The notes: generated from the letters alone by a model not told the origin. 64,000 bases of DNA from an uncultured Verrucomicrobiota bacterium (GCA_964611575.1 CAZTAJ010000002.1:22582-86581); one strand, 5' to 3'; counted from the stretch's first letter, positions 31,493-62,340 are shown. A program made the numbers and translations.

Positions 31493-31499
31493 GTACGCC

Positions 31500-31676
31500 A
31501 TGAACGACCCCTCTTCCGTCCGGTATGTGTGCATTAATTGCGGGTATGTGTACGATCCCGCGCAGGGCGACGCGTTGAACAACGTGCCGCCCGGCACGGC
31601 GTTCGACGCCCTGCCGGAGGGGTGGGTGTGTCCGCTGTGCTATGCGGACAAGGACAAGTTCGATCCCGTGGATTGA
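31500..31676 (+). CDS. Rubredoxin (58 aa; below the ORF-track size cutoff)
   Basis: Manual translation gives MNDPSSVRYVCINCGYVYDPAQGDALNNVPPGTAFDALPEGWVCPLCYADKDKFDPVD. This matches the canonical rubredoxin pattern of CxxCG..YDP and WxCPxC plus a short tail. It lies 8 bp after the metH stop. Confidence 0.8.
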   Translation: MNDPSSVRYVCINCGYVYDPAQGDALNNVPPGTAFDALPEGWVCPLCYADKDKFDPVD

Positions 31677-31692
31677 GGGACGGAGGAGCACC

Positions 31693-34442: not shown

Positions 34443-34534
34443 GTGCGCACGGCGCGGCCGGAGGCCGTCGCCCCACCGGGGACCGCCGGACAGGCACGGC
34501 GCGGGCGTCCTCGCCCCGCCGGCAACAGACCCGT

Positions 34535-44607: not shown

Positions 44608-44608
44608 C

Positions 44609-45682: not shown

Positions 45683-46649
45683 TCAGCCGGAATGCAGTCG
45701 CCAGGAATGGAGTCTGGGTGTTGATATTGGCTCCGTCACCATCAAGTTCGTTCTGATGGACGCGGCCGGAGAGGTGCGCTACGACTCGTATGCTCGCACG
45801 GAAGGCTCCCCGGTCCATGCGCTGTCTGTTGGCGCGAGACAGGTGCGGGAGCAACTCCCCAAGGGCACGGAGATCGGTGCCGTGGGCACGACGGGGAGCG
45901 GTCGGTTCCTGGCGGGCGCGTTTCTGGGCGCGGATGTCGTGAAGAACGAGATCACTGCGCATGCCGTGGGCACGCTTCATTGGCGAAACGATATTGCCAC
46001 CATTATCGAGATCGGCGGCCAGGACTCCAAGATTATCCATCTCCGCGATGGGATGGTCCGTGATTTTGCAATGAACACGGTCTGTGCAGCAGGCACAGGC
46101 GCTTTTCTCGACCAGCAGGCCTTTCGGCTCAAGATCCCCATTGACGAGTTTGGCCCCTTCTCTCTTAAGGCGGAGAGACCGTTGAGGATCGCGGGCCGAT
46201 GCTCGGTCTTCGCGGAATCCGACATGATCCACTACCAGCAGACGGGGCATGAGAAGGCCGATATCTGCATGGGGCTTTGCCAGGCACTGGTCCGAAACTA
46301 CCTTAATAACGTTGCGCGGGGGAAGGCCATCCGGGGGCCGGTGTCGTTTCAGGGTGGGGTCGCCTTCAACCCGGCCATCCTCAAGTGCTTCCGGGACGCG
46401 TTGCCTGGGCGGGAGATCGTGACCCCGCCGCATTCGACGGGTTGTGGCGCCATGGGTGCGGCCCTGCTGGCCCGCGAGGCCGTCGGCGATGGCCGAACCG
46501 CATTCCGCGGCTGGCAGGAGGGTGACTTCCGCATTAGCCAGGGAACCTGTCCGCATTGTGGCAACCAATGCAAGATCTGCAGCCTGAACGGTGAGCAAGG
46601 AGCACTTGCCCGGTGGGGCGGCCGCTGCGATCGTGGGAATGCGCTATGA
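45675..46649 (+). CDS. CoA-substrate-specific enzyme activase (BadF/BadG/BcrA/BcrD ATPase family, HgdC-like)
   Basis: It has ASKHA-fold motifs LGVDIGSVTIKFVLMD and IEIGGQDSKII, plus a conserved Cys pair for a bridging [4Fe-4S]. The ORF begins at 45540. The preferred start at 45675 overlaps the upstream stop (ATGGCTGA). Confidence 0.75.
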   Translation: MADQPECSRQEWSLGVDIGSVTIKFVLMDAAGEVRYDSYARTEGSPVHALSVGARQVREQLPKGTEIGAVGTTGSGRFLAGAFLGADVVKNEITAHAVGTLHWRNDIATIIEIGGQDSKIIHLRDGMVRDFAMNTVCAAGTGAFLDQQAFRLKIPIDEFGPFSLKAERPLRIAGRCSVFAESDMIHYQQTGHEKADICMGLCQALVRNYLNNVARGKAIRGPVSFQGGVAFNPAILKCFRDALPGREIVTPPHSTGCGAMGAALLAREAVGDGRTAFRGWQEGDFRISQGTCPHCGNQCKICSLNGEQGALARWGGRCDRGNAL

Positions 46650-48073
46650 AGAGAATCCTGCTGGTCAAACCCGATTCCGAGTTGACGGTCGTGAAGCGGC
46701 TGCGGGCCTTTCTCCATCTCGAGCCGCTGGAGCTTGAGCACCTGGCCGGAGCCGTGCCGCCGGGACATGATGTGCGCATCCTCGACATGACGGTCGAGAC
46801 ATGGCCTCTGCGGGCCCTGCGACGAACCGTCCGTTGTGACCGGCCGCACCTGGTCGGGGTGACCGCCTACAGCAACCAGCGGGCGCGGGTGGCCGCTTGC
46901 ATCCGTATCATCAGGGAGGAAGCCCCGGATGCGTTGATCGTGCTGGGCGGTCACCACGCCACCATCATGCCGCACGATTGCCGGATTCCGCACCTCGACG
47001 CGATCGTGCGTGGCGAAGGGTGCGCGACCTTCCGGAAGATGATTGAGGTGCTGGGCGCCGGTAGGGACGCGGTCCTGGCGATACCCAATGTCTACGCCCC
47101 GGATGCAGCGGATTTCGGGGAGGTGCCGCCCTATCCCGGCATCGACACTCTGCCGCTGCCCCGGCGTGATCTCGTGGATGGACGAAAGTACTTTTGCGCT
47201 TGGAGCACCCCCAACAAGGCCGCCAACGCGTCCATCCTGCCGGTGGTGGCCAGTATGCGAACGTCCTTCGGCTGCGCTTACCAGTGCAGTTTCTGCATCG
47301 TGCCGGAGCTCTGCGGCCGGAAGTACTTCCCGAGGAACATCGACAGCATTGTCGATGAGCTCGAATCGCTGGCCACCGATTACGTCTACTTCGTCGATGA
47401 CGAGACGTTTCTCTCGCCCCGCCACATGTGGGACCTGGGCAGGAAGATTCAGGAACGCGGCATCAAGAAGCATTACGTCTCCTGGGCCAGGAGCAATACC
47501 GTCACCACGAACCCGGATCTGTTCAAGTTCTGGCACGAGATCGGGCTCGACATCGTCTATGTGGGCCTGGAAAGCATCAATGATGCGACCCTCATGAGTC
47601 TCAATAAGAAGGCGACCCTCGCGCAGAACGAAGAGGCCATCCGAATCCTCCACGAGTGTGGAATCACGCTCCATCCGGCGTTCATGGTCATGCCGGAGTT
47701 CACTGCCGAGGATTTCCGAGCGCTCAATGACTACGTTCAGGCCATGCCGCCCGTGGAGGCGACGTTCACGGTCTACTCGCCGTCGCCGGGAACCGAAGAC
47801 TGGAAGAGACATGCCGACGACTTCATCTGCGATCCCATCCGGTTCTACGACTGCATGCATACGATTTTGCCCACCCGTTTGCCGTTGAAGGAGTTTTATC
47901 GGCACTTCGCGCAACTCACCGTCCGAGCCCTGAACCGGAACCCTGTGCGGGTGAACAGGACCAGGGTGAAGTTCCGGGAACTCCTGAAGATCGTGTGGAT
48001 GACGGGCCGCTATATTCGGACCCAGCGCAACATGTGGCGTGACTACCGGGGAGTTCGAGCGGGTGGTGCGTGA
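46646..48073 (+). CDS. B12-binding radical SAM protein (class B rSAM), second copy
   Basis: It has an N-terminal B12-binding domain and a CAYQCSFC radical SAM motif. Its start overlaps the activase stop (ATGA). Confidence 0.85.
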   Translation: MKRILLVKPDSELTVVKRLRAFLHLEPLELEHLAGAVPPGHDVRILDMTVETWPLRALRRTVRCDRPHLVGVTAYSNQRARVAACIRIIREEAPDALIVLGGHHATIMPHDCRIPHLDAIVRGEGCATFRKMIEVLGAGRDAVLAIPNVYAPDAADFGEVPPYPGIDTLPLPRRDLVDGRKYFCAWSTPNKAANASILPVVASMRTSFGCAYQCSFCIVPELCGRKYFPRNIDSIVDELESLATDYVYFVDDETFLSPRHMWDLGRKIQERGIKKHYVSWARSNTVTTNPDLFKFWHEIGLDIVYVGLESINDATLMSLNKKATLAQNEEAIRILHECGITLHPAFMVMPEFTAEDFRALNDYVQAMPPVEATFTVYSPSPGTEDWKRHADDFICDPIRFYDCMHTILPTRLPLKEFYRHFAQLTVRALNRNPVRVNRTRVKFRELLKIVWMTGRYIRTQRNMWRDYRGVRAGGA

Positions 48074-49086: not shown

Positions 49087-49495
49087 AGTATTCGATCCTT
49101 CTGCAAAACGTCCTCTTTGAGGCTCGCCCATCACTCTTCAGGTCAGTCCTGCCAAGCACAGTCTTGAATTGTGTTTCGATTCCACTCATTTTCTCAGGAG
49201 GAAAACGTCATACGTTACACCCCTTTCGCTTTGCTTGTTCTCGCCGCAGTGTCGAACCCATCTCGCTGAATTGCCCTATATCAAATATTCCGGGAGTGAC
49301 AAGAACATTGTTCTGGTTTTCGCATGGGGTTTTCGCTTGTCGGGCGTATCGGCGCTGTGACAGCATGGCAGTGTTGATGCTCCAACCGAGTCTTGGACTG
49401 GGCTTAGGGACGACGGCCCGATAATGGAGGCAGTTGCATGTTCCCGCTGGGTGCTGCAAAGGCGATCAAGGCGGCGCGTTCGATCATATGAATTC

Positions 49496-50947
49496 ATGAT
49501 GAATCTCGCTGACTTGCTGCAACATGCTGCCGCGCGATATCCCGAAAACATTGCGGTTTCGGATGGTGAGCGTGCGCTGACCTATGCAGAACTGTGGCAG
49601 GAGGTTTGCCGTGCCGCCGGGGAACTGGAGGCCGTGGGGATCGGTCGCGGCCGGATGGCGGGCCTTCAGTTGGGGAACAGCATTGCATTCATCATACTGA
49701 CCTATGCGTTGTGGCGCTGTGGGGCGGTGGTTGTCCCTATTCCCATGGAGATGCGGGAGTCGGAGAGAACCGAATTGCTCCGCACGATGGACTTGGCCGC
49801 CGTGTTGTCGAGTACGGCACCGGTGGGTGAGCACGCGACCGTGGCAATCGATGTCGCGGGCACAGCCATAACGGGCACCGTATTCCATAGGGGCAGCGCG
49901 CCGATCAGGGACAAGGTCAATGCCGCCATGGTGCGGTTCACATCAGGAACAACCAACGCCAACAAGGGGGTTGTGCTTTCTCACGAGGGCATACTGGAAC
50001 GCATCACGGCCGCGAACAATGCGTTGCATATTGGCCCGGGCGACACCGTAATGTGGTGCCTCCCCATGGCTCACCACTTCGTGGTTACGATCATCCAGTA
50101 CCTTTGGCAGGGGGCGAAAATCGTTCTCATCAGGAACACGGCAGGCCAACCCTTCCTTGATGCGATCATCGAGAACCGGGGCACAGTCTTGTACGCATCG
50201 CCGTTTCACTACGATGCGCTTTCACAAGACGCGTCGGGACGTGGGATCTCGTCTGTGCGCATGGCCATCTCAACGACCACGGCCCTTCCGGCCGATACGG
50301 CGCTCCGTTTCTTCGATCGGTACGGCCTGCACCTCATCCAAGCCTACGGAATCATTGAACTCGGGCTGGCTTGCGTCAATGTCGATGATCCGGCCGGCCG
50401 GCCGACATCGGTCGGGCAGCCGACCCCGGGATTCAGGTTGCGGCTTGCCAACGGAGAGCAGTACATCGGGCTTGGCGAGGGATGTGGCGAAATCGAGGTC
50501 TCCGGCCCCGGGTTCTTCGCGGCCTATTATCATCCGTGGGTTGCCGCCCGCGACGTCATGGATGGCCCGTGGTTTCACACTGGTGACGTGGGCAGAATCG
50601 ACAGCGACGGGTTCCTCTTCCTCTACAGTCGGGTCAACAGCGTCATCAATATCGCGGGAATGAAGGTTTTTCCGGAAGAAATTGAGCACGTACTGGACTC
50701 GCACGACTTCGTGAAGGAGTCGCGGGCCTACGCGGTGAAGCATGCCCACCTGGGGGAGGTCGTCCAGGCCGATGTTGTGCTGCGCCACGGCGTTGCAGCG
50801 GTGTCTGAGGATGACCTCCGAACGCATTGCGCGCAGCGACTCTCTTCTTTCAAGGTGCCGAACAGGATTCGATTCCTGGACGGCATTGACAGGACATCGA
50901 CCACCCTCAAGATCAAACGACACACAGCACCGGAGTCGGCCACTTGA
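49496..50947 (+). CDS. AMP-dependent synthetase/ligase (fatty-acyl or aryl-AMP ligase; ApeH-like starter-loading enzyme)
   Basis: It has an adenylation core A3-like motif FTSGTTNANKGVVLSH and an A8-like GWFHTGDVGRIDSDGFLFL. Start trimmed to MMNLADLL. Confidence 0.8.
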   Translation: MMNLADLLQHAAARYPENIAVSDGERALTYAELWQEVCRAAGELEAVGIGRGRMAGLQLGNSIAFIILTYALWRCGAVVVPIPMEMRESERTELLRTMDLAAVLSSTAPVGEHATVAIDVAGTAITGTVFHRGSAPIRDKVNAAMVRFTSGTTNANKGVVLSHEGILERITAANNALHIGPGDTVMWCLPMAHHFVVTIIQYLWQGAKIVLIRNTAGQPFLDAIIENRGTVLYASPFHYDALSQDASGRGISSVRMAISTTTALPADTALRFFDRYGLHLIQAYGIIELGLACVNVDDPAGRPTSVGQPTPGFRLRLANGEQYIGLGEGCGEIEVSGPGFFAAYYHPWVAARDVMDGPWFHTGDVGRIDSDGFLFLYSRVNSVINIAGMKVFPEEIEHVLDSHDFVKESRAYAVKHAHLGEVVQADVVLRHGVAAVSEDDLRTHCAQRLSSFKVPNRIRFLDGIDRTSTTLKIKRHTAPESAT

Positions 50948-51939
50948 GCGAACCGACGACAACAAGTGATGCCATTTCCTCCGTCGGCTCATCGGAGACG
51001 GTGCGGCGCGAGGCTGCGGCGGCGACCCAAGCCGCCTATCGATCATCCAAGTGGTCCGGAAAGACCAGGGGTGGATCCCTGGGCAACTGGTACTTCCTGC
51101 AAGTGATAAGGCTCCTGGGAATACGGGCGGCGTACGTTGCCCTTGTGCCCATCGCGGCATATTATCTGATTGCGAGTCCCCGGAGCGTAAAGAACTCCCG
51201 CCGTTATCTCCGGCGTGTGTTGGGGCCGAAGTCGTTCTGGCGATGGCCCTTCCTGGTATATGGTCACTTCTTCTCCTTGGGCATGAGTCTGCTTGACCGG
51301 TCCGCCATGCTGATGGGGCGCAAGGAGTTTACATGCACCTACGATGGAGAGGGCAGAATCGCGAACGCGCTTGCCTATGGGAAAGGCGTCATTCTAGTCA
51401 GCGCTCATGTCGGGAACTGGGCGGCCGGCGGGCATCTTCTCCGGCGTTTGAACACGCGCGTCAACATGGTGGCGCTGGAGAACGAGGTCAAGAGCATCCA
51501 GCGGATGTTTGACCGGGCATTTCCGGACAAGGGATTCGGGGTTCTCTCCTCCAGTCCCGATCTCACATCAAGCATGGCGATCATGGATGCCTTGCGGCGA
51601 GGGGAGATCGTGGCATTCAATGGCGACCGGACGGTTGAAGGCGCGGCCAGCGTAGAGACGACCTTTTTCGGGGACGTGGCCGATTTTCCGGTGGGTCCCT
51701 ACCTGCTGGCGTCGGTGACCGGGTCGCCGGTGATCCACGTTTTTGCCATGCGGGACGGGGTTGATCGGTATAGATTCTTCTGCTCGACAGCCAGGTTTGT
51801 CGAGAGGACTTCCAGGCAAAAGCGGCAGGAAGTGGTGAGGGCCGTTGCAGGGGGCTTTGCACACGATCTGGAAACGGTGCTCAGAAGGTATCCGTTCCAG
51901 TGGTACAATTTCTACCCGTTCTGGAAGAAGGAAACCTGA
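50944..51939 (+). CDS. Lipid A biosynthesis (LpxL/HtrB)-like lysophospholipid acyltransferase (ApeD-like)
   Basis: 331 aa in the LPLAT/HtrB family. Its start overlaps the upstream stop. Confidence 0.7.
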   Translation: MSEPTTTSDAISSVGSSETVRREAAAATQAAYRSSKWSGKTRGGSLGNWYFLQVIRLLGIRAAYVALVPIAAYYLIASPRSVKNSRRYLRRVLGPKSFWRWPFLVYGHFFSLGMSLLDRSAMLMGRKEFTCTYDGEGRIANALAYGKGVILVSAHVGNWAAGGHLLRRLNTRVNMVALENEVKSIQRMFDRAFPDKGFGVLSSSPDLTSSMAIMDALRRGEIVAFNGDRTVEGAASVETTFFGDVADFPVGPYLLASVTGSPVIHVFAMRDGVDRYRFFCSTARFVERTSRQKRQEVVRAVAGGFAHDLETVLRRYPFQWYNFYPFWKKET

Positions 51940-51972: not shown

Positions 51973-52395
51973 ATGGAATTGATGGACATCGAAGAGGTTA
52001 TACCGCATCGGCCGCCGATGCGGATGATCGATGCCTTGACGGAGTGGAGTGACGACTCCGCGAGCGGGGTCGTCGTCTTCGATGGAAATCACATGGCGGT
52101 GCATGACGGCCTGGTTGTTGAGTCGGCGCTTGTCGAATGCATTGCCCAGACAGTTGCCGCGATGGAGGGCGCCAAGCGGGTTGCCTGCGAAAGCCCGCGT
52201 GGTCCTGCCGGGGAGCAGGTGGGCATGCTGTGCGGGGTGTCTGATTTTGCTGTCGTCAGGCGGCCGCGAGCGGGGGATCGGTTGGAGATCCGGGTTCAAG
52301 TCCGCAAGAGGCTTGGACCGATGCTGCTTGCAGACGGCCAGGTCTTGTGTAATGGACACATCGCGGCTGCAGGATCGTTGAAACTTTCAGGCTAA
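51973..52395 (+). CDS. FabA/FabZ-like 3-hydroxyacyl-ACP dehydratase (hotdog fold)
   Basis: 140 aa. The N-terminus IPHRPPMRMID matches the FabZ-like IPHRxPxxxxD signature. Confidence 0.7.
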   Translation: MELMDIEEVIPHRPPMRMIDALTEWSDDSASGVVVFDGNHMAVHDGLVVESALVECIAQTVAAMEGAKRVACESPRGPAGEQVGMLCGVSDFAVVRRPRAGDRLEIRVQVRKRLGPMLLADGQVLCNGHIAAAGSLKLSG

Positions 52396-52413: not shown

Positions 52414-52908
52414 TTGGGAGACGACACAATGGGAGTCAGGAGAAAACGGAGGCGGCGCTCTATCGAGGAGGCCCGCAGCTATCTGTCCGAGGAGACGCAA
52501 GTGCGCGTGCGTTTCCATGAGGTGGATTCCATGCGTATTGTCTGGCATGGACACTATGTGACCTACTTCGAGGATGCGCGACGGGCCTTCGGACGTCGCT
52601 ACGGGCTCGACTATCCCGTCTTTCTTGAAAACAACATCGGCGCGCCGGTGGTGAGCGTGTGGGTCGATTTTCTCTCTCCGGCCTTGGGGAACGACCTGTT
52701 GGAGGTGGAGGCGCGCCTGTACAAGTCGGAAGGCGCCCAGCTCGAATTCAGCTACGAGGTGAAGCGCGCCCAAACGGGCGTTCTGCTCGCCAGCGGCGGC
52801 AGCGTGCAGGTGTTCACCACATTGAAGGGAGAATTGTTGCTGACTTGGCCGGCTCTGATGCTCGAGCGCTATGAGGCATGGAAAGACTTATGGATCCCCT
52901 CCGCTTGA
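52414..52908 (+). CDS. Acyl-CoA/acyl-ACP thioesterase (4HBT/YbgC-like hotdog)
   Basis: 164 aa with the motif FHEVDSMRIVWHGHYVTYFEDAR, typical of 4HBT thioesterases. Confidence 0.7.
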   Translation: MGDDTMGVRRKRRRRSIEEARSYLSEETQVRVRFHEVDSMRIVWHGHYVTYFEDARRAFGRRYGLDYPVFLENNIGAPVVSVWVDFLSPALGNDLLEVEARLYKSEGAQLEFSYEVKRAQTGVLLASGGSVQVFTTLKGELLLTWPALMLERYEAWKDLWIPSA

Positions 52909-54089
52909 AGGGAGCCGTGGCCGTTGCCGGCCTGGGGGTGGTGTCTGCCGCCGGAGACGGCGCCGACGCCACGTTGCTGTCCATTAAGGCAAACAGCGTG
53001 GAACTGCACGAGTGCGTCAGATATCGCGACGCCCTTTACATGACGAATCGCGTGGGGGCGGTGTCTGATCGCGTCTGGAGTTTGCTTGGCGGACCGGACG
53101 CCGGGCCCGCCGATTCCCGCACCTTTCAACTGGCGAATCGTGCGCTGGTCGAGGCGGTTCGGCAGGCGGGCCCGCAACTGGCCGATGTTGACGCCCAGCG
53201 AGTGGGCTTGGTGTTGTCCACGACCAAGGCCGAGATCGACGCGTTGGGTTCTCTCGTGGCCGGTGGCCATTGCAGTGACCGGTCGCGGCGGCATATCCTC
53301 GCGTCTCAACTCGCGGCTGACTTGGCTTCCGCCAACCACGCGTTCGGACCGCTTCAGTGTGTCTCCGTCGCCTGTATATCCGGTCTGCTGGCGATCCAGC
53401 AGGGGGTGCGGTTGATTCTTGCCGGCATCGCCGATGCGGTGCTCGTCGTTGGAGCCGACGTACTTTCGCACTTTGTCCTTGCGGGATTTAGCGCCTTGAA
53501 ATCTCTCGACCCTTGCGGATGCCGCCCCTTTGACAAGGATCGACAGGGCTTGAGCCTGGGCGAAGGCGCTGGCGCACTGGTGCTGGTTCGGTCAGATCTG
53601 GTTTCCGCTCCGCTGGCGACGATCACGGGATGGGGCGTTAGCAATGATGCCAATCATCTGACAGGTCCTTCCCGGGACGGCTCGGGACTGGCGCTCGCCA
53701 TTAAGCGAGCCTTGCGCATGGCCAACCGGACTCCCGACTCCATTGAGTATATCAACGCCCATGGAACCGGTACGGTCTACAACGACAGGATGGAAGCGCT
53801 GGCTTTCAGGACGGTCTTCGGTAGCCGCTCGCCTTGGGTCACCTCCTGCAAGGGATTGCTCGGGCACACGCTGGGAGCGGCCGGAGTTATCGAGAGCGCC
53901 ATCTGCATTCTGGCTGCCCGCGCTCAGGTCATGCCGGGGACGCCTGGATTCAGCCGTCCGGATGAGGAGGCTCCCGTTCGCGTGGCGGCCACCCCGCGGT
54001 GTTCGGTTTCCTACAGTCGAATCTTGAAGACCAACGCCGGGTTTGGCGGCACGAACAGCGCACTGGTTCTGGAGGTGCCCCCCCCATGA
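52890..54089 (+). CDS. Beta-ketoacyl-ACP synthase (KS, FabF-like; ApeO-like)
   Basis: It has the active-site Cys (SVACISGL), NAHGTGT and GHTLGAAG. The ORF starts at 52878 and is trimmed to MDPLRL. Confidence 0.85.
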   Translation: MDPLRLKGAVAVAGLGVVSAAGDGADATLLSIKANSVELHECVRYRDALYMTNRVGAVSDRVWSLLGGPDAGPADSRTFQLANRALVEAVRQAGPQLADVDAQRVGLVLSTTKAEIDALGSLVAGGHCSDRSRRHILASQLAADLASANHAFGPLQCVSVACISGLLAIQQGVRLILAGIADAVLVVGADVLSHFVLAGFSALKSLDPCGCRPFDKDRQGLSLGEGAGALVLVRSDLVSAPLATITGWGVSNDANHLTGPSRDGSGLALAIKRALRMANRTPDSIEYINAHGTGTVYNDRMEALAFRTVFGSRSPWVTSCKGLLGHTLGAAGVIESAICILAARAQVMPGTPGFSRPDEEAPVRVAATPRCSVSYSRILKTNAGFGGTNSALVLEVPPP

Positions 54090-54796
54090 CACGTGAAGTG
54101 ATTGCCGTTGCGGCCAGCTACATGACGCCCGAAGGCTACGGTAGCAGCGCCTTTGGCCGTCGTCCATGGAGGGATGGCCATGGGGAGCCGTGCGAACAAA
54201 AAGAGTTGATGGGCATACCCTGGTTGTCGCTGTTCTCGGTGCCGTGTCCTCGATTCGGCCGGATGTCCCCGCTCACCAGACTAGGTTTGATGGCGGTCGA
54301 ACTGCTCGACGTTGGCTTTGCCGATATGACTGAGGAGCAGAGGACGGACACAGGCCTCTGCATGCTCAGTCCTTTTGGGTCCATGGCGACGGACATCGAG
54401 TTCCTGAGGGAACCCGGCCCCGCCTCCTTCGCCTACACGCTGCCCAGTAGCGTGATCGGAGAGGTGTCCATACGACACCGGCTGCGGGGGCCCGGTCTGT
54501 GCCTGATGTCCGCGGGAAACACGGGGCGCAGCATTGTCGAAGAAGCATCGGAGCGGATCGCGATGGGGGAAGCCGAGTCCATGTTGTGCCTTTTCTGTGA
54601 CGCGCAGGGGGATGAGACTCGCGATCTCCTCAAGTATACACTTGATCGGGATGACAAGTTCTGCTGGTATGCCTACGCATTGTACCTTGTGCGGAAAGGC
54701 CCCGTTCCAGGCCCAGGCAAGACTGTCGCGGGAGGGGTGTTCGCATCCGGTACGGATATCTGTGGGATGTGTCTGGATCTGTGCGGGAATAAGTGA
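54086..54796 (+). CDS. Chain-length-factor-like small KS-fold protein (ApeC-like)
   Basis: About 236 aa with a KS N-terminal-like fold lacking the catalytic Cys. Its start overlaps the KS stop (ATGA), consistent with a KS/CLF heterodimer. Confidence 0.6.
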   Translation: MTREVIAVAASYMTPEGYGSSAFGRRPWRDGHGEPCEQKELMGIPWLSLFSVPCPRFGRMSPLTRLGLMAVELLDVGFADMTEEQRTDTGLCMLSPFGSMATDIEFLREPGPASFAYTLPSSVIGEVSIRHRLRGPGLCLMSAGNTGRSIVEEASERIAMGEAESMLCLFCDAQGDETRDLLKYTLDRDDKFCWYAYALYLVRKGPVPGPGKTVAGGVFASGTDICGMCLDLCGNK

Positions 54797-54866
54797 CGTA
54801 GGCCGGGAGATATGGCGTGTGGGGTCCGGTGGGTGCCTCACGTGATCGAACATTTGGAGATGGACC

Positions 54867-55130
54867 ATGTCGATTGAAGAACGAATAGAGGATCTCAAGG
54901 GCAAGATTATCGCGGCTCTTGACCTGGAAGACGTCACTCCCGAGGACATCGATCCGGATGCGCCGTTGTTCCAGGAGGGCCTGGGGCTCGACTCCATCGA
55001 CGCGCTGGAACTCGTGGTGATGCTCGAAAAGGAGTACGGAATCTCCGTCAAGGACATCGAGGTGACGAAGAAGGCGTTTGCATCGGTTCGAGCTCTGGCA
55101 ATCTTCATTGCGGAGAACCATGCTCCATGA
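54867..55130 (+). CDS. Acyl carrier protein
   Basis: 87 aa with the phosphopantetheine attachment motif GLDSIDALEL. Confidence 0.85.
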   Translation: MSIEERIEDLKGKIIAALDLEDVTPEDIDPDAPLFQEGLGLDSIDALELVVMLEKEYGISVKDIEVTKKAFASVRALAIFIAENHAP

Positions 55131-57544
55131 GCGAACGCGTTCCTGTCGTAACGGGAACCGGTGTCATTTGTTCCGTTGGCTGCGACAGTGAGAGTGTCTG
55201 GCAGTCCCTGATCAGGGGCAACTCCGGCCTTGCGCCCTTGACTCTCTTCCACTCCGCCCGCCACGGGCAGGCGCCGGTGGCCGAAGTGGTTGCCGACGTG
55301 GACCAGCTCTGCGGAAGTGCGATCAGGGGATCGCGTTCCGACAAACTTGCCTACATCGCTGTCCGGCAGGCATTGGCCGCCGCGGGCCTGGAAGAGGCCA
55401 TCGGCAGTTTCGGGAACCGCGCGGGTGTCGTGTTGGGGGCCACGGTTGGAGGGGTCCGGGGAACCGAACAATTTCTGGACAGCCTTCTACGCGGAAACGT
55501 CCGCAGGTACGGGCTGCTTCGTTATCACGAGTGCGCCGCTGCGACGGATTTGTGTGCAAAGGCTTTCCGGTGTTTCGGCCCGACAACGACCGTTTCGACC
55601 GCCTGTTCGGGCGGCGCCATGGCAATCGCCATGGCAGGGAGGCTTATCGAGAGCGGTGCTGCTGACATCATGATCGCCGGCGGATGCGATTCGCTATGCC
55701 GCCTGACGGTCAATGGCTTCGGTTCTCTCCTGTTGCTTGACCCCGAGGGGTGCCGGCCTTTCGACGTGAATCGAGCGGGAATCAGCCTTGGCGAGGGAGC
55801 GGCGGCGTTGGTCATCGAGAGTGCGCAATCAGCCGCCAGACGAGGGGTTCCGGTTCTTGCCGTCCTGTCAGGGTGGGGTTGCACCTGCGATGCATTTCAC
55901 GCGACCGCGCCTGACAGCAATGGTGACGGGGCGTACCGGGCCATGTCCGGGGCTCTCCGTCGAGCCGGCCTCGTGCCTGCCTCGATCAGCCACGTCAATG
56001 CGCACGGCACGGGCACTCCCGGCAATGACCTGGCCGAATCCAAGGCCATCAAACGGTTGTTCAGCGAAGTCATGCCCCCCGTACTTTCAACAAAGGGACT
56101 TCTGGGTCACACCCTGGCCGCCAGCGGCGCCATCGATTCCGTGATTTGTGTAAAGTCGATGGAACACGGGGGCCCGCCCAGGAGCCCGAGGTTTGAAGCC
56201 GTGGATCCCGACATCGGGTTTGAACCCGTGCGGAAGACTTCCGCAGAGCCTCAGTCTCATGTCATGAACAACGCTTTCGGATTTGGCGGCAACAACGTCT
56301 CGCTCGTCTTTTCTCGGGCGGTCGACGAGGCATCACATCCAATATCCATGGGTGGGGCGTCCTCGACGGTTCGGACGAGCCGGTTTTCGATTGCGGGCGT
56401 CGGGGTCGTTTCGCCCATGGGTAACACGGCGGAAAGCCTGTTTGTCGCCTGTTCCTCCGCGGGTGCGACGGCATCTCCGCGGGAGATTGATGCGCCGTTG
56501 CCGCTAAAACGAGTCCGCGTCTATTGCTGTTCCGACGACTTCGGCGCCAGGGAAGAAATTGCCGCCGGACGCCGTCGGAGACTGGAGCGGATTCAGTTGA
56601 TGACGCTGGTGGCCGCCAAGAGAAGCTGCCGAGGCCTGTCGCTGGAGGCTGTCGACGGAGAGCGGATCTGTGTGGCCATGGGAACCGGACTCGGCGCCGC
56701 CTCAGCTACGGCCGCCTTTGTCGAGCCCGTGGTGGCCGATGATAATGCCGCGCCGTCGCCGCAGAAATTCACCAATGCGGTGCACAATGCACTGGCATCG
56801 TCGGTGGCTATGGAAATCGCTGCTCGTGGCCTCAACTCCACCGTCACGCATCGCGAGATCTCATTTGAATCCGCCTTGTGGCATGGCACGCAGGAGATTG
56901 TCACGGGGAATTCGGACTACGCGATCGTGGGCGGAGCCGACGAACTGACTCCGTACTTGCTCAGCGCCGGCGCCCGCTGGGGTTGGTGGGATGAGAACAC
57001 CCTGCCACTCCGCCCTTTGTCAGCCAACTTGACTCGCCGACAGAGGGCAATGCCCGGGGAAGGCGCGGTGGTCTTCTGTCTGACCCGGAGCCGTGGCGAT
57101 CGCCCTGCGCTTGCCGAAGTGGCCTGCGTTTCTTTCGGCCGATTTGCCACGGACGAAGACGGGAAGATCGCTGCAGATCGGGAAGCCGGATGGATTGAGG
57201 CCGAACTTACGGGCCATGGCGTATCCCTAGCACAGATCGACATGGTCCTTACAGGGGCAAACGGGCTCCCGTCCCTTGACGACATGTACATTGCCGTCGT
57301 GGCAGCGCTCGGGCGGAGGGTGGGTAGGGACATCCGCCATGGCTGCTACAAGCATCTCTGCGGAGAATATCACACCGCATCCGCATTTGGGATGGCTATG
57401 GCGGTGGGCCTGGTATCAGAGAGCGTGTCTCCCGACTCGCTGCTTTCTGCTGGTGGCCGTTGCCGTGTGGTGCTCATCTACACTCTATCGGGCGATGGCA
57501 CGCGAGCCGTGGTATGTGTTACCCGGCCGGGAGCGATTCCATGA
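55127..57544 (+). CDS. KS fused to a C-terminal KS-like/CLF domain (didomain condensing enzyme)
   Basis: 805 aa. The N-terminal domain is a full KS (TACSGGA, NAHGTGTPGND, GHTLAASG). The C-terminal 380 aa or so is a second thiolase-fold domain without the catalytic triad. Confidence 0.8.
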   Translation: MSERVPVVTGTGVICSVGCDSESVWQSLIRGNSGLAPLTLFHSARHGQAPVAEVVADVDQLCGSAIRGSRSDKLAYIAVRQALAAAGLEEAIGSFGNRAGVVLGATVGGVRGTEQFLDSLLRGNVRRYGLLRYHECAAATDLCAKAFRCFGPTTTVSTACSGGAMAIAMAGRLIESGAADIMIAGGCDSLCRLTVNGFGSLLLLDPEGCRPFDVNRAGISLGEGAAALVIESAQSAARRGVPVLAVLSGWGCTCDAFHATAPDSNGDGAYRAMSGALRRAGLVPASISHVNAHGTGTPGNDLAESKAIKRLFSEVMPPVLSTKGLLGHTLAASGAIDSVICVKSMEHGGPPRSPRFEAVDPDIGFEPVRKTSAEPQSHVMNNAFGFGGNNVSLVFSRAVDEASHPISMGGASSTVRTSRFSIAGVGVVSPMGNTAESLFVACSSAGATASPREIDAPLPLKRVRVYCCSDDFGAREEIAAGRRRRLERIQLMTLVAAKRSCRGLSLEAVDGERICVAMGTGLGAASATAAFVEPVVADDNAAPSPQKFTNAVHNALASSVAMEIAARGLNSTVTHREISFESALWHGTQEIVTGNSDYAIVGGADELTPYLLSAGARWGWWDENTLPLRPLSANLTRRQRAMPGEGAVVFCLTRSRGDRPALAEVACVSFGRFATDEDGKIAADREAGWIEAELTGHGVSLAQIDMVLTGANGLPSLDDMYIAVVAALGRRVGRDIRHGCYKHLCGEYHTASAFGMAMAVGLVSESVSPDSLLSAGGRCRVVLIYTLSGDGTRAVVCVTRPGAIP

Positions 57545-57584
57545 GAAACGATCGACGCCTGAAGCGCAAGGGGGTACCACTCGG

Positions 57585-57980
57585 ATGAGGCCTTGCGTTG
57601 AACGATCCCTGCTGCGTTGCGAATGCGGAGATTCGACCGGGGAATTTTTCTTTTCGTTTTCGGCATCGGAAGGCACATTCAAGGGGCATTTTCCGAGGCA
57701 TCCGATTCTGCCGGGGGTGTTCCAACTGGAGATGGCCAAGTTTGCATGTGAACGGGTGACGGGCAGGCGTCTTGAGATTGAGAAGATCGAAAGAGCCAAG
57801 TTTTCCCGGCCGATCCTGCCGGAAGAAGAGATCCGTCTGTCGGTGAAGATTCAATCGGGTGAAGGCATTCTGCATGCCCAAGCGATTGTTTTTGTATCCA
57901 GCGAGCAGGCGGGAGGTGTCAGCCTGGTTCTGCGCAGCCGGGGGACTCGGGAGCGGGGGGCAGGCGGCTCAAACGCTTGA
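57585..57980 (+). CDS. Hotdog-fold dehydratase (FabA/FabZ-like; ApeP-like)
   Basis: The motif FKGHFPRHPILPGVFQLEMAKFA is characteristic of FabZ-like dehydratases. It is trimmed from ORF 57276-57980 to the first Met after the upstream stop. Confidence 0.6.
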   Translation: MRPCVERSLLRCECGDSTGEFFFSFSASEGTFKGHFPRHPILPGVFQLEMAKFACERVTGRRLEIEKIERAKFSRPILPEEEIRLSVKIQSGEGILHAQAIVFVSSEQAGGVSLVLRSRGTRERGAGGSNA

Positions 57981-58058: not shown

Positions 58059-58634
58059 ATGAAGAAGGAATGGGTAAAGGCTGGAATCGTGGCGGCGGTG
58101 TTTTTCTGCTCTCTGTTGACGTTTGCTCAAGGGGGGACGACAGACGCGGTCAAGGGAACTATTATGGAGGGCGGATTCAACAAGTTCAAACTGCAGGACA
58201 AGAGCGGCACAAGCTGGCTGTTTTACCCCTCCCAGAAGGCTACCGGCTACGAGCCTGCCGACTGGCGGCCGAACGAGGGCGACGAGGTTGCGGTGGCCTC
58301 CATCGAAGTGAAGCGACGGGATGCCACGATTCTACAGGCGAACCAGATCACACTACTCAAAGCCGGACCCAATACGTTCAGGTTCAAGAGCCCGGTGGAG
58401 GTGGAAATCGTCGAAGCCGGTCGCAGTGGGTACAGGGCCAAGGTCCTGTCCGTTGGCGCCACGGTGAAGTTCGGAAACCAGCGCGGCATGCAAATGGTTC
58501 CGGCGGGTTGGCTCCCTGCCATGGGTGAGAGGGCCATCATAACCTTCATCACCAAACCCATCCCGATCGGCTACTCGATGGGTTACTACATAGTGAAGAT
58601 GGAGAAGGTCGATACCGGCAAGAAGGCTGAGTGA
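58059..58634 (+). CDS. Secreted hypothetical protein (signal peptide)
   Basis: 191 aa with signal peptide MKKEWVKAGIVAAVFFCSLLTFAQG. It is beta-rich and has no recognisable motif. Confidence 0.5.
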   Translation: MKKEWVKAGIVAAVFFCSLLTFAQGGTTDAVKGTIMEGGFNKFKLQDKSGTSWLFYPSQKATGYEPADWRPNEGDEVAVASIEVKRRDATILQANQITLLKAGPNTFRFKSPVEVEIVEAGRSGYRAKVLSVGATVKFGNQRGMQMVPAGWLPAMGERAIITFITKPIPIGYSMGYYIVKMEKVDTGKKAE

Positions 58635-58665: not shown

Positions 58666-59868
58666 ATGAATCGGGTTCTCATTTTTCCTAACACGCATAC
58701 GCTCTCCCACCTGGCCCGTGCCTTGGCTGTGGCGGACTGGCTGGATGGTGCGGGTTGGGAGAGCCATCTTGGAGTCTCGGCGTTGCGTTTGGAGTGGGCC
58801 GCACGGTTCCATTCCCGATGCCACGTTGTGTCGGAACTGTGGGAACCCTCGGGCACTCCGCACCCTTGCGTGAAGTGGTTCCATGATGCGAAGCACGTGA
58901 CGAGGTGCATCGATTCCCAGGAGCGGCTCATCCGCAGCATCTCCCCCTCCCTGATTGTCGGGATTTTTGATTTTCCCTCGGCCGTGAGCGCCGGCAACAT
59001 TCCCCGTCTCAGCATCAATGGCGGGTGCATGCTGCCGTTCTACCCAGGGGTGCTCGGATACGACGCGACTCCATCCTCTCAGCAGACGCTTCAGAAAACG
59101 GTGTTGGATCGCTTCTGGGCCTTCGCCGGACGAGCCTTTAACACCGCTCTGTGCGATCACAGACAGGAGCCAGTCGCGAGCGTGCTCGATCTCCTGGTGG
59201 GCGACGTGAATTTGATCTACGAAATCGACGAGATCTGTCGGCTCCCCAGCTTGTCACCCAACTATCACATGGTCGGTCCGATTGCCTGGGACGGGTGGGA
59301 AGTGATGGGTGAATGCGTATCTCCGTGGCGGAGGGATGACTCAAAACGGACTGTGTATCTCAACTGCGGATCGCTGGCAAGAAACGGACGGGTAAGGACG
59401 AGAATCATGGAGGCGTGCCTCCGGCAGTGCGACCGCCTGCTGGTCAGTACGGGTCTGAACGGTGGCGGGGATGTGAAGTCGGACCGGGTTCAGATCAGGC
59501 CGTTTCTTTCCCCGGCGGGCGCCACTGCCGTCGCTGACGTCGTGGTCTGCACGGGCGGGGTCGGCGCCTGTTACACCAACCTGTTGCATGGAGTTCCGTC
59601 CCTGGTGGTGCCAATGCAGCCCGAACAGGAAACGAACGGCATCAACTTGGAGCGAGCGGGATGCGGCAGGGTCCTGAGGGCGAACCTTGTCTTTCTTGGC
59701 GATCCGCGACAGTACGAAGAGTCGCTCGACTATGGATACTTGGAGGAAACACTGCACGAGATGCTGGCAACGCAAGACCTCGAACAGGGGTGCGAGCAGG
59801 TCCGGGAGCGGCTCTTGAAGTGCCGGACTCGCGAGGCGGTCATTGATCTTGCCGGGAGTCTGCAATGA
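58666..59868 (+). CDS. GT1-family (MGT/UDP-glycosyltransferase-like) glycosyltransferase
   Basis: 400 aa with a GT-B fold. The C-terminal nucleotide-sugar motif is VVCTGGVGACYTNLLHGVPSLVVPMQPEQETNG. Confidence 0.7.
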   Translation: MNRVLIFPNTHTLSHLARALAVADWLDGAGWESHLGVSALRLEWAARFHSRCHVVSELWEPSGTPHPCVKWFHDAKHVTRCIDSQERLIRSISPSLIVGIFDFPSAVSAGNIPRLSINGGCMLPFYPGVLGYDATPSSQQTLQKTVLDRFWAFAGRAFNTALCDHRQEPVASVLDLLVGDVNLIYEIDEICRLPSLSPNYHMVGPIAWDGWEVMGECVSPWRRDDSKRTVYLNCGSLARNGRVRTRIMEACLRQCDRLLVSTGLNGGGDVKSDRVQIRPFLSPAGATAVADVVVCTGGVGACYTNLLHGVPSLVVPMQPEQETNGINLERAGCGRVLRANLVFLGDPRQYEESLDYGYLEETLHEMLATQDLEQGCEQVRERLLKCRTREAVIDLAGSLQ

Positions 59869-61451
59869 AAGGACGGCTGAGAGCGTTTCTGGTGCATGGA
59901 ATGGGAAGCTCGCCGGGATGGTGGAATCCGCTCATCGCCCCGCTTCAGAGCCTGGGACTGGAACCCGCTGCACTGGAAATGCCTTCTCTTGAATCACACG
60001 GCCCGGCGGCATGGGTTGACGCGATTGTGCGGCACGCAGGCCACGCTCCAATCCTTCTGATCGGGCATTCGCTGGGTGCGGCCGTGTGCGTGGTGGCCTC
60101 TCGTCGAATCTCTTGTGTCGGGATCATCCTGCTGGCCTGTCCTCCGTTCTTCGATGACTACCGTCCGTCGCCTCCGGCGGGAACCGGCCTCTCCGTCCGC
60201 GCTGTGACAAGGGTTGGGATGTTCCTGCGCGATGCCGCGCGGGAATCGACTCTGGTGACAACGGATTCCATTCATTTCATCGGTGACGCCGACCCATTCA
60301 TCCCAGCGGAACAGGCGGCGCGCCTGCCCTTTCCCCTGATTGTGATCCCTTCCGCGGACCATGATCCGATGGACTCGATGCGCTTCATGAAAGCGCTGAT
60401 CGAGCACATCGTCAATTCGCGGTTCGGAAAACACTTCCTCGATCCTGCAGTCCGTGCGCCGTCGCGTCTCCGCGCGTCGGACACCCTTGGGGAGGCGATG
60501 GATTTGAATGAAGCCGCACCTCCCCCGGCTCGGATCGATCTGGAGATCACCACCCGCTGCCAGTGCGCCTGTCCGCGATGTGCCAGAACGCTGTTCCCGA
60601 CCTTGGCCCGACCCATGGATATGAGCCGGGTGTTCTTCGAACGAGTGATGGGCGAGTGCTCCGGAGCTGGCGAGATCATTTTCGTTGGGCTGGGCGAACC
60701 GCTGCTTCACCCTGATCTCCCCTTCTTCGTTTCCACGTGCGCGAGACTGCAGATGAACGTCAGTGTGGTCACCAACGGCCTGCTGGCGGAACCCGGTCTG
60801 GTGGAAACGCTATTTGAGGCCGGTCTTGGGGAGATCACGTTCAGCATCGATTCCACCGACCCCGAAAGGTTTCGGTCTCTGCGCGGAGGGGCCGATTTGC
60901 GGCGGGTTCTGGTCAATTTCCGTGCGGTGCGGGCAGGTCGGCATAAATCGATATTCGTGACGCTCTCCCAACAGAATGTGGGAGACCTGCGGGGATTGGT
61001 GGATCTCGCTGCGAGCGAGGGGCTGCGCGCCATTGCGGTCTCTGATGTGAACTTCCCGGAGAATGCCGACGAGTCCCTGCACCAAGCCCAAGCGGAGATG
61101 GATCTGGGTGCCGCCATCGCATACGCGCAGGAACGTAATGTTCTGCTCATTGACCCCAGGTTTCACAACACCGGAGATCCGCGGCGTCATCCTCTTCGTT
61201 GCACGGCAAGAAAGCCTGCGAACATTATGGGAAGATCCTGCCGCCATCGTCATTGCCTGGCCCCCTGGCGCATTGCGGTGGTGGGGGTGAATGGCGACCT
61301 GACGCCGTGCAATTGTGCGCCGAAGGCGGCGGTTGGCAGCCTTGCCCGTGGCTCGATGGCGGATGGATGGAACGGGCCAGACATGGCGAGATGGCGCAAG
61401 GCCGTCATGGGCGGCGAGTGCCAGTCGTGCTTGACCTGTCCCAGGTACTGA
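59865..61451 (+). CDS. Fusion of alpha/beta-hydrolase domain (GHSLG nucleophile elbow) and radical SAM-SPASM domain
   Basis: The N-terminal 190 aa or so have GHSLGA plus an Asp/His-bearing alpha/beta-hydrolase layout. Then comes a radical SAM CxxxCxxC (CQCACPRC). The C-terminal Cys cluster is C..C....C...C.C (SPASM/twitch-like). Confidence 0.75.
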   Translation: MKGRLRAFLVHGMGSSPGWWNPLIAPLQSLGLEPAALEMPSLESHGPAAWVDAIVRHAGHAPILLIGHSLGAAVCVVASRRISCVGIILLACPPFFDDYRPSPPAGTGLSVRAVTRVGMFLRDAARESTLVTTDSIHFIGDADPFIPAEQAARLPFPLIVIPSADHDPMDSMRFMKALIEHIVNSRFGKHFLDPAVRAPSRLRASDTLGEAMDLNEAAPPPARIDLEITTRCQCACPRCARTLFPTLARPMDMSRVFFERVMGECSGAGEIIFVGLGEPLLHPDLPFFVSTCARLQMNVSVVTNGLLAEPGLVETLFEAGLGEITFSIDSTDPERFRSLRGGADLRRVLVNFRAVRAGRHKSIFVTLSQQNVGDLRGLVDLAASEGLRAIAVSDVNFPENADESLHQAQAEMDLGAAIAYAQERNVLLIDPRFHNTGDPRRHPLRCTARKPANIMGRSCRHRHCLAPWRIAVVGVNGDLTPCNCAPKAAVGSLARGSMADGWNGPDMARWRKAVMGGECQSCLTCPRY

Positions 61452-61536: not shown

Positions 61537-62340
61537 ATGAGAACATTCCCTGATGCCGGTCACCCCGGACGCGTGCCCGCAGCGCCAGAAGAGCGGCTTC
61601 TTGTCACTTGGGTTCGCAGAATGGTGTTTGGTGTGGTGGGGCTGTGTTCCTATCCGAGTCTGGCCATCATCAACACACTGAAGATATCAGGGACGGAACA
61701 CCTCAGATGCCTGCCAAGGGAAAACGTCCTATTTGTCAGCAACCACCAAACCTACTTTGCCGATGTGATTGCCATTCTGCATATTCTTTGTGCCGTGAGA
61801 GTGGGGAAGACGCGTAGTTTGGGGATTCCGTACTACTTGCTCGCACCCTTTACCCGTGTCAACTATGTGGCATCTGAACAAACCATGAATGGCACTTGGA
61901 TCAGCCGCCTTTTTGCGGTGGCTGGGGCCGTGACGGTAAGAAGAACCTGGAACGCAGAAGCAAAGGAAACCCGCAAGGGCCTTGATCCATCGGATACTCG
62001 GAAGATCACCAGGGCACTTGCCCGGAACTGGGTGATTACTTTTCCCCAGGGAACCACCACACCATTTGCGCCGGGAAGAAGAGGAACGGCACTCATCATC
62101 AAACATAACAGACCCATCGTCATCCCTGTAATTATTGACGGATTTGGGAAAGCTTTCAACAAGACAGGCTTAAAACTCAGGAAGCCAGGAACAATCCTGA
62201 CGGTTCAGTTCAAAAAGGCATTGGATATAGATTATGGTGCCCGATCAGAAGACATGCTTGAGCAGATAATGGGCGCCATTGAGCAAAGCAAGGCGTATGC
62301 GATGCCAGAAGACACAGAACGGACGACGACTCATGAGTAG
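61537..62340 (+). CDS. 1-acyl-sn-glycerol-3-phosphate acyltransferase (PlsC/AGPAT-family)
   Basis: It has the NHQTYFAD (NHxxxxD) catalytic motif and FPQGTT (FPEGT-like) block. The start may be internal. Confidence 0.7.
   Translation: MRTFPDAGHPGRVPAAPEERLLVTWVRRMVFGVVGLCSYPSLAIINTLKISGTEHLRCLPRENVLFVSNHQTYFADVIAILHILCAVRVGKTRSLGIPYYLLAPFTRVNYVASEQTMNGTWISRLFAVAGAVTVRRTWNAEAKETRKGLDPSDTRKITRALARNWVITFPQGTTTPFAPGRRGTALIIKHNRPIVIPVIIDGFGKAFNKTGLKLRKPGTILTVQFKKALDIDYGARSEDMLEQIMGAIEQSKAYAMPEDTERTTTHE

Follow-up and report, generated by a model that had tools for sequence, protein, structure and literature searches.

We analysed a 64,000-nucleotide stretch of DNA from an uncultured Verrucomicrobiota bacterium (GCA_964611575.1 CAZTAJ010000002.1:22582-86581), called here the window, with positions counted from its first letter. 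Between 52878 and 57980 it encodes two ketosynthase/chain-length-factor (KS/CLF) systems of the ApeO lineage around one acyl carrier protein (ACP) of the ApeE type. One system consists of the ketosynthase KS1 and a half-size partner, CLF1. In the other, the ketosynthase KS2 is fused to a full-size, catalytically dead partner, CLF2. We read these genes, with a probability of about 0.75, as the condensing core of an aryl-polyene (APE)/flexirubin-type pathway, that is, a type II (discrete-enzyme) polyketide/fatty-acid-like pathway, in a probably anaerobic bacterium of the PVC (Planctomycetes-Verrucomicrobia-Chlamydiae) group. Its product would be a polyene lipid resembling a pigment. This reading is carried by the parts of the core, their catalytic residues, their homology, the synteny of the locus and the fused-heterodimer architecture.

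The long open reading frames (ORFs) of the window were scanned with Pfam and NCBIfam, and scores were compared with the cut-offs of the families. The core belongs to a tightly packed run of plus-strand genes at 49.4-62.3 kb. Its genes, together with the thioesterase that adjoins KS1, are as follows.

52414..52908 (likely start ATG 52429), plus strand: thioesterase of the 4HBT/YbgC type, ApeK/FlxH-like (PF13279 47.3 bits, PF03061 41.5 bits, TIGR00051 65.9 bits).
52878..54089, plus strand: KS1, ApeO-lineage ketosynthase (Pfam ketoacyl-synt_C 5e-31, ketoacyl-synt N-domain 8e-19).
54086..54796, plus strand: CLF1, half-size (a single thiolase half), 236 aa (weak match to the ketoacyl-synt N-domain only).
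54867..55130, plus strand: ApeE-type ACP (PF00550 3e-12; NCBIfam NF006617 81.2 bits, cut-off 70).
55127..57544, plus strand: KS2::CLF2 didomain, 805 aa (KS 1-~400, linker ~401-416, CLF-like domain ~417-805).
57585..57980, plus strand: ApeI-like hotdog dehydratase subunit, 131 aa (ORF 57276-57980, with ATG 57585 as the likely start; PF22818 32.9 bits, cut-off 28.5; FabA 29.6 bits).

An earlier reading, made by a model without database searches (the sequence-only reading), had proposed a KS, a CLF, an ACP, a KS::CLF fusion and a dehydratase in this order, and the gene calls placed all of them at 52878-57980. It had also proposed two hotdog dehydratases flanking the core. The downstream one was found, namely the ApeI-like protein, whereas the gene that touches KS1 turned out to encode the thioesterase, and the ApeP-like dehydratase lies one gene further upstream. 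The ATG of CLF1 overlaps the stop codon of KS1 as ATGA. A second ATGA overlap places the start of the didomain within the stop codon of the ACP.

To compare active and inactive domains, we aligned KS1 and KS2 and their partners with a third pair, KS3 and CLF3, which forms part of a B12-binding radical SAM (rSAM) protein further upstream. The partner-domain residues were also read from alignments to solved FabF structures. The Cys-His-His triad is intact in KS1, KS2 and KS3. In the partner domains, the Cys position is occupied by Gly in CLF1, Glu in CLF2 and Pro in CLF3. The first His is replaced by Ala in CLF2 and deleted in CLF3, and CLF1 lacks the entire C-terminal thiolase half. The same pattern was observed among the 120 members of the didomain family. 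Each of the three KS2 residues was kept in 120/120 members, whereas the CLF2 Cys position held Glu in 103, Asp in nine and Cys in none; Ala stood at the first His position in 112. The motifs REISFE, LTGANG and YKxxCGE are nearly invariant in these homologues and particular to CLF2. The sequence-only reading had counted three distinct KS/CLF units, including the upstream rSAM-KS-CLF, and we confirmed three, with CLF-like members that lack the catalytic triad. These members are not mere KS paralogues, since the full triad was sought in all three and found in none. Their conserved residues suggest that they are genuine non-condensing partners under purifying selection.

The APE cluster of E. coli CFT073, together with fabF and fabB of strain K-12, was compared with the window by BLAST in both directions. 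The proposed relatedness to APE clusters was upheld by matches to ApeO, ApeE, ApeK and ApeI, plus the C-terminal half of ApeJ. KS1 had ApeO as its best E. coli match (37% identity, 170 bits), compared with 134 bits for FabF, and a neighbour-joining tree placed it together with ApeO and its own orthologues. The best match of the ACP in E. coli CFT073 was ApeE, at 52% identity, and its serine lies within a GLDSID motif.

In APE-type systems the CLF has roughly half the size of its KS and a single thiolase fold (PMC8358021). CLF1 is 236 aa long, against 240 aa for E. coli ApeC, and 107 homologues of about 230 aa were found. An AlphaFold2 (AF2) model of CLF1 had a mean predicted local distance difference test (pLDDT) score of 81 and a predicted TM-score (pTM) of 0.82. 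Foldseek matched this model to the N-terminal halves of ketosynthases, to the Iga12 CLF and to ApeC of Xenorhabdus doucetiae (6qsp_B; TM 0.57/0.56). A half-size CLF is a hallmark of APE KS/CLF pairs, and by its size, its coupling to KS1 and its predicted fold CLF1 fits this type.

The didomain gave a strong KS match over its first 400 residues and a second, weaker KS match in its C-terminal half in the Pfam and NCBIfam scans. When KS2 was compared with the E. coli ketosynthases by BLAST, FabF scored 182 bits, ApeO 176, FabB 150 and ApeR 131. The tree was a small, distance-based neighbour-joining tree with bootstrap, in which the well-supported splits alone are trustworthy. In this tree KS2 formed a clade at 100% bootstrap with sequences from Verrucomicrobiota, Desulfobacterota, Spirochaetota and Bacteroidota, and ApeO and the KS1 clade were joined to it at 90%. 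ApeR was placed with FabB and FabF. KS3 stood loosely (44%) beside the FabF/FabB/ApeR set, and no KS of the window grouped with ApeR or FabB. KS1, KS2 and CLF2 each shared clades with Bacteroidota counterparts. The sequence-only reading had taken the didomain for a FabB-like ApeR fused to a CLF. The scores and the tree contradict this, because KS2 favours FabF and ApeO over ApeR, and is joined to ApeO and KS1 while ApeR goes with FabB and FabF. As judged from these comparisons, the didomain is most simply a second KS/CLF heterodimer of ApeO lineage whose two partners are fused.

The ApeC family profile recognizes the CLF2 type and not CLF1, since the CLF2 of Chitinophaga, where the two domains are split, passed PF13723 with 39.8 bits (cut-off 25). 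CLF2 and ApeC have the motif P-x-x-F-x-x-S-V-H-N in common; sequence and profile comparison of the window CLF2 with E. coli ApeC was otherwise non-significant. Both pairs, KS1/CLF1 and KS2/CLF2, thus appear to belong to the ApeO/ApeC lineage, and either may be the strict orthologue.

A protein search recovered at least 119 full-length homologues of the didomain (~800 aa, 47-100% identity) with the same KS::CLF fusion, apparently mostly from PVC-group bacteria; the few of the 119 that carry organism names are Verrucomicrobiota. Genome loci were also gathered with a didomain-alignment scan on generic KS peptide patterns, which returned mostly Bacteroidota and housekeeping FabF rather than close PVC relatives. 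KS2 and CLF2 were fused in both of the genome loci examined outside Bacteroidota (717-722 aa) and in three Bacteroidales loci. In about 30 of 35 Bacteroidota loci the KS2 ORF was about 400 aa long, which points to split genes. Chitinophaga has an in-frame stop between KS2 and CLF2, with a new Met two codons on. These homologues suggest that the fusion represents a large conserved family and not a peculiarity of this locus. Because KS2 and CLF2 are fused in some genomes and encoded by adjacent genes in others (a Rosetta-stone pattern), they would act as a heterodimer.

To predict the fold of the didomain, we used an AF2 model built from a 20-sequence alignment. The model had a pTM of 0.89, with a low-confidence linker at 401-416. 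Since the pTM is so high across two 400-residue domains, the mutual arrangement of both halves is predicted with confidence. The top Foldseek match was the KS-CLF of PfaC (6RIW, E 1e-44, TMq 0.76), which was the sole match spanning both halves. The predicted fold of the didomain is therefore that of an intramolecular KS/CLF pseudo-heterodimer resembling PfaC KS-CLF.

To place the core among known clusters, we mapped it on genome loci with tblastn. The block thioesterase-KS1-CLF1-ACP-KS2-CLF2 was found in loci from Verrucomicrobiota, Bacteroidota, Desulfobacterota and Spirochaetota, and each of its elements was kept in 27-29 of the 33 genome loci with enough upstream sequence. The LpxL-type acyltransferase and the ApeP-like dehydratase, followed by the block, were present in the closest metagenomic relatives (L001, L083 and L084) and in a more distant Verrucomicrobiota contig (L002). 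The same extended order was observed in Chitinophaga pinensis (L004), a Prevotellaceae metagenome-assembled genome (MAG) and Flavobacterium. In Chitinophaga the core is followed by genes for a polysaccharide deacetylase, LolA, a FabA-like dehydratase and an MMPL-acyltransferase protein, and the locus also contains an ApeB-like methyltransferase and a halogenase.

The published flexirubin cluster contains five putative ketoacyl synthases, namely FlxC, FlxI, FlxL, FlxN and FlxO, followed by the export and anchoring genes flxP-flxU (PMC3992019). By its gene content the L004 locus matches this cluster. From gene order we infer that FlxI corresponds to KS1, FlxL to CLF1, FlxN to KS2 and FlxO to CLF2. 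On these sequence comparisons, the block from the thioesterase to CLF2 is the conserved core FlxH-FlxO of the Bacteroidota flexirubin-type clusters. The proposal that the gene order mirrors the E. coli APE cluster was not borne out; what it mirrors is the flexirubin cluster. In Chitinophaga pinensis (flxA-flxY) and Flavobacterium johnsoniae the block has the same order as in the window and is likewise preceded by the LpxL-type acyltransferase and the ApeP-like dehydratase. However, KS2 and CLF2 are mostly separate genes there and one fused gene here. The window lacks FlxC, the ketoreductases (KRs) FlxB and FlxV, the tyrosine ammonia-lyase FlxA, the ApeB-type methyltransferase, the halogenase, the polysaccharide deacetylase, LolA and the MMPL exporter of the flexirubin clusters. 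Conversely, four radical SAM proteins, a DUF2229/activase module and the third KS/CLF are extra in the window.

With the APE clusters of E. coli CFT073, Xenorhabdus doucetiae and Acinetobacter baumannii, the window shares the ApeO-type KS with a half-size CLF, the ApeE-type ACP, ApeI/ApeP-type dehydratases, an ApeK-type thioesterase, and, for lipid anchoring, an acyltransferase and a glycosyltransferase. In comparison to these clusters, the window has a different gene order, one ACP instead of two, and a second KS/CLF pair where they have the homodimeric FabB-like ApeR. The KR ApeQ, ApeB, ApeL, ApeM and ApeN are not in the window, and CLF1 is not recognizable as ApeC by its sequence.

ApeB-type methyltransferases that share 46-47% identity with E. 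coli ApeB were seen at L088 8519-9574, alongside the rSAM::KS::CLF operon of a Chitinivibrionales MAG, and at L004 6748-7815, with a flexirubin-type core; none was seen in the window.

The other genes of the plus-strand run that surrounds the core are as follows.

49424..50947, plus strand: AMP-dependent ligase (Pfam AMP-binding 4e-56).
50944..51939, plus strand: LpxL-type (lipid A biosynthesis family) acyltransferase (PF03279 1e-17).
51973..52395, plus strand: ApeP-like hotdog dehydratase subunit (weak NCBIfam FabZ matches; BLASTP to E. coli ApeP 28%, E 1e-4).
58059..58634, plus strand: secreted or lipoprotein-like protein, 191 aa (signal-like N-terminus).
58666..59868, plus strand: GT-B (GT28/MGT-like) glycosyltransferase (PF04101 2.5e-5, 24.8 bits, cut-off 22; weak MGT family match).
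59865..61451, plus strand: alpha/beta-hydrolase::radical SAM/SPASM fusion, 528 aa (PF12697, PF04055, PF13186).
61537..62340, plus strand: PlsC-type acyltransferase (PF01553 30.5 bits, cut-off 23).

The thioesterase is 29% identical to E. coli ApeK (E 2e-15). The downstream dehydratase carries an HFPxxPILPG motif and is 31% identical to ApeI. PF22817 (ApeP-like) was matched by the L001, L083 and L084 orthologues of the upstream dehydratase, and the window copy itself had no Pfam match at E<=0.01. An ApeI/ApeP-type pair is thus present, with a weak ApeP-like partner in the window copy. The LpxL-type acyltransferase shares 26% identity with the C-terminal half of E. coli ApeJ (residues 244-550) and lies upstream of the core also in L001, L002, L083, L084, L003 and L004. 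The ligase adjoins the core in L001 (73%) and L083 (60%) as well. It is a candidate for the role of ApeH/FlxY, in which, by analogy with the APE pathway, it would activate the starter acid. The window has two acyltransferases and a glycosyltransferase; LolA and MMPL are present in relatives and not in the window. The 191-aa protein matched no Pfam or NCBIfam family and sits where relatives have LolA and another uncharacterised protein; in relatives, LolA comes after the fusion gene. The best NCBIfam matches of the 59865-61451 fusion were SPASM maturases, all far below the cut-offs.

Upstream of this run, the following genes were called.

37860..41657, minus strand: B12-binding radical SAM::KS3::CLF3 tridomain protein, 1265 aa (Pfam domains).
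41726..43171, minus strand: B12-binding radical SAM enzyme, BchE/HpnJ-like below the family cut-offs (profile matches).
43432..46649, plus strand: two DUF2229/HGD-D-like subunits and a BcrAD/HgdC-type ATPase activase (accessory module, profile matches).
46613..48073, plus strand: B12-binding radical SAM enzyme, best match HpnR, a hopanoid C-3 methylase (TIGR04367 228.8 bits, cut-off 650).
48448-49134, minus strand: outer-membrane-protein (OMP)-like ORF, 228 aa (signal peptide and C-terminal aromatic residue).

The upstream B12-rSAM::KS::CLF protein, also put forward in the sequence-only reading, was confirmed as a real gene. Its family comprises at least 120 clusters at 90% identity, with at least 61% identity over the full length (1250 aa), and its named sources are Verrucomicrobiota and Chitinivibrionales. 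The CxxxCxxC motif and the KS triad were kept in 120-121 of the 121 tridomain sequences, and the CLF3 Cys position was Pro in 100 of them. The literature searches found nothing describing an rSAM-KS fusion. In relatives the tridomain gene heads an operon, in which it is followed, sometimes after another KS::CLF, by an ACP, a GCV_T-like protein, a 4HBT protein, a KR and a malonyl-CoA:ACP transacylase (MCAT). One such operon shares a contig with an APE-like core (L083 and L090).

The tridomain gene and the B12-rSAM gene at 41726-43171 lie on the minus strand, divergent from the plus-strand genes. The plus-strand genes open with the DUF2229/HGD-D-like pair, the activase and the HpnR-like B12-rSAM, with the minus-strand OMP-like gene lying between these and the ligase. 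The closest relative, L001, shares the rSAM::KS::CLF protein, both B12-rSAM enzymes, the ligase and the core at 67-88% identity; its orthologue of the 41726-43171 enzyme, in the same position, is 83% identical, and that of the 46613-48073 enzyme 87%. The DUF2229/activase module (43432-46649) is absent from L001, which is also the closest syntenic relative. The architecture of this module is that of a ketyl-radical enzyme (2-hydroxyacyl-CoA dehydratase/benzoyl-CoA reductase-like). We considered the module as an anaerobic substitute for tyrosine ammonia-lyase, which would supply a cinnamoyl or coumaroyl starter by aryl-lactyl-CoA dehydration. No test supported this idea, and the module is absent from L001.

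The OMP-like ORF looks like an outer-membrane beta-barrel and interrupts the plus-strand run; the GC content dips to 0.556 there. The plus-strand ORFs 48847-49167 and 49164-49424 look spurious, as they overlap this minus-strand gene. Across the biosynthetic locus (38001-64000) the GC content is ~0.56-0.63, compared with ~0.63-0.71 in the left 38 kb, and the cluster may have been horizontally acquired. A cobalamin/one-carbon neighbourhood lies upstream of the cluster, at 26106-35662. It includes a full-length MetH-like methionine synthase (27908-31492), a homocysteine S-methyltransferase::methylenetetrahydrofolate reductase fusion (31642-33519), a URO-D/MtaA-like protein and a ferredoxin-like protein, and is consistent with a B12-using anaerobe. 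Further left, a putative 1526-aa gene without a Pfam family occupies 8717-13297 on the minus strand, in the most GC-rich stretch (0.68-0.71), where the AT skew is strongly negative.

As the sequence-only reading also pointed out, neither a ketoreductase nor an ammonia-lyase is encoded nearby, and what it said of 26 kb holds for all 64 kb. E. coli FabG, ApeQ and FabD gave no tblastn match in the whole 64 kb, and the Pfam scans of all long window ORFs showed no short-chain dehydrogenase/reductase and no aromatic ammonia-lyase. The absence of an ammonia-lyase is normal for many APE clusters; the annotated E. coli APE cluster has none. Since the window lacks KR and MCAT, these activities must come from elsewhere in the genome, and relatives have them in the tridomain-headed operon.

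We next weighed other readings of the core. That it is an ordinary type II fatty acid synthase (FAS II) operon, or a set of duplicated housekeeping FabF paralogues, is almost certainly wrong. The fabF models are indeed strongly matched by all KS domains. However, their fabF equivalog scores all fall under the cut-off (221-462 bits vs 493.75), FabH, FabD, FabG and FabI are absent from the window, and the ACP is of the ApeE type and not the AcpP type. Moreover, the three partner domains lack the catalytic Cys, and the neighbours are acyltransferases, a glycosyltransferase and radical SAM enzymes. With the FAS II genes missing and the CLF-like domains dead, the core is not an ordinary FAS II operon. 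A canonical APE cluster whose priming KS, ApeR, gained a CLF-like domain as a peculiarity of this locus is very improbable. The didomain follows the ACP as a second core KS, much as APE clusters have ApeR for their second type of KS, and the window has no other stand-alone FabB-like KS. Against this stand the BLAST scores and the 90% placement of KS2 described above, and the occurrence of the same fusion in at least 119 homologues. In addition, Bacteroidota clusters have a separate FabB-like KS (41-43% identical to E. coli FabB) besides KS1/CLF1 and KS2/CLF2.

It is also unlikely, though less so, that the locus makes a ladderane-like or other non-polyene lipid, in which case a short or partly reduced chain built by the KS/CLF units would be cyclised or alkylated by the B12-rSAM enzymes and the likeness to APE clusters would reflect shared type II parts. 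In its favour, the core is flanked by four radical SAM proteins, of which one is a KS/CLF fusion, and the window encodes no KR. The putative ladderane Cluster I of anammox bacteria also joins a B12-rSAM, an ACP and a FabZ-like dehydratase to a heterodimer of a FabF-like KS and a full-length, triad-less FabF homologue that serves as CLF (bioRxiv 10.64898/2026.05.19.726425). The best PDB sequence match of CLF2 was 9s5h_C, and the top match of both KS1 and KS2 was 9s5h_B. We take PDB 9S5H/9S5I to be the anammox amxFabF2/amxFabFmut heterodimer, with 9s5h_C as its inactive partner; the PDB names that chain just 3-oxoacyl-ACP synthase. The CLF2 match is weak (36.8 bits), and the similarity reflects general FabF-likeness. 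The window resembles the anammox system in having a FabF-like KS and a triad-less partner near an ACP, a dehydratase and a B12-rSAM. However, the two anammox proteins are encoded by separate genes, and the Cys is substituted by Val or Thr there and by Glu in CLF2. The rSAM domains of the window reached 47.9, 86.5 and 66.6 bits against a TIGR04072 cut-off of 360, and the scanned ORFs included no homologue of phytoene desaturase. Furthermore, the core shares synteny with flexirubin clusters whose products are aryl polyenes, rSAM genes are missing from the neighbourhood of the same core in many relatives, and the ApeI/ApeP-type dehydratases resemble polyene-forming ones.

Two other known systems were compared. 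PfaC of the polyunsaturated fatty acid (PUFA) synthases, like the didomain, carries an active KS and an inactive CLF in one chain (6RIW). However, identity is 18%, and PfaC goes on into two FabA-like dehydratase domains and works within a multidomain, type I-like synthase with tandem ACPs, whereas the didomain is a stand-alone type II protein that ends after CLF2. The ACP and dehydratases of the window are likewise discrete proteins. In aromatic type II polyketide synthases the CLF Cys is changed to Gln and cyclases or aromatases are present. The window has Gly, Glu and Pro at this position, and the general Pfam scans showed no cyclase family; the actinorhodin KS scored below FabF and ApeO.

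Several results count against an APE/flexirubin-type core. As seen in the window the pathway is incomplete, with no KR, MCAT, LolA, MMPL exporter, ApeR-type KS or ApeB methyltransferase. CLF1 gave a BLASTP E of 2.3 and an hhalign E of 0.06-0.12 against E. coli ApeC, with no PF13723 match, and the bootstrap for KS1 with ApeO alone was only 50%. The ligase had no BLASTP match to E. coli ApeH at E<0.01 and is not detectably an orthologue of ApeH or FlxY. Its PDB matches are scattered over malonyl-, oxalyl-, feruloyl- and fatty-acyl-CoA ligases, from which a substrate cannot be inferred, and an aryl head group is unproven. Finally, the literature searched reports no characterised product for any PVC-group member.

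For the APE/flexirubin-type reading, a pathway can be outlined by analogy, in which the step order, the way the KS/CLF units share the work, the starter and the product are all taken from APE-type systems. The AMP-dependent ligase would load a carboxylic-acid starter onto the ACP. Both KS/CLF units would carry out iterative decarboxylative condensations with malonyl-ACP, and they would probably split chain-length windows, or priming and elongation, between them. A KR supplied in trans would reduce each beta-keto group. The ApeI/ApeP-type hotdog pair would dehydrate without enoyl reduction, which would yield a conjugated polyene. The thioesterase, the two acyltransferases and the glycosyltransferase would then free the chain and link it to a lipid anchor. 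The B12-radical-SAM enzymes nearby, including the one fused to the third KS/CLF, would probably alkylate the chain or modify it in some other way while it is bound to the ACP.

The core itself is fairly ordinary and would not surprise a specialist. Its headline oddity is a widespread fusion of a known, biochemically unstudied second KS/CLF pair of flexirubin-type clusters. This suggests that the "extra" KS genes of the flexirubin-type and PVC-type APE clusters encode a second KS/CLF heterodimer. The fusion would serve as Rosetta-stone evidence that FlxN and FlxO act as a pair, whereas published flexirubin/APE schemes call them simply ketoacyl synthases. In relatives, the KR and MCAT that seem to be missing are part of a companion operon, at the head of which stands the B12-radical-SAM::KS::CLF gene.

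The genuinely unstudied element is the adjacent rSAM::KS::CLF protein. Its tridomain family occurs widely among uncultivated Verrucomicrobiota and Chitinivibrionales, is highly conserved, and is undescribed in the searched literature. It is a speculative and rather doubtful idea that the whole of 37.8-62.3 kb is an uncharacterised pathway of anaerobic PVC-group bacteria, in which three KS/CLF heterodimers, one of them rSAM-fused, build and modify an ACP-bound chain. The chain would be polyene or fatty, and the modification could be, for example, C-alkylation or cyclisation at unactivated carbons. If this were true, the rSAM::KS::CLF family would be a natural fused model for the combined B12-rSAM and KS/CLF chemistry that has been proposed, and never demonstrated, for ladderane-type lipids. 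The tridomain family could open access to radical chemistry on carrier-protein-bound chains.

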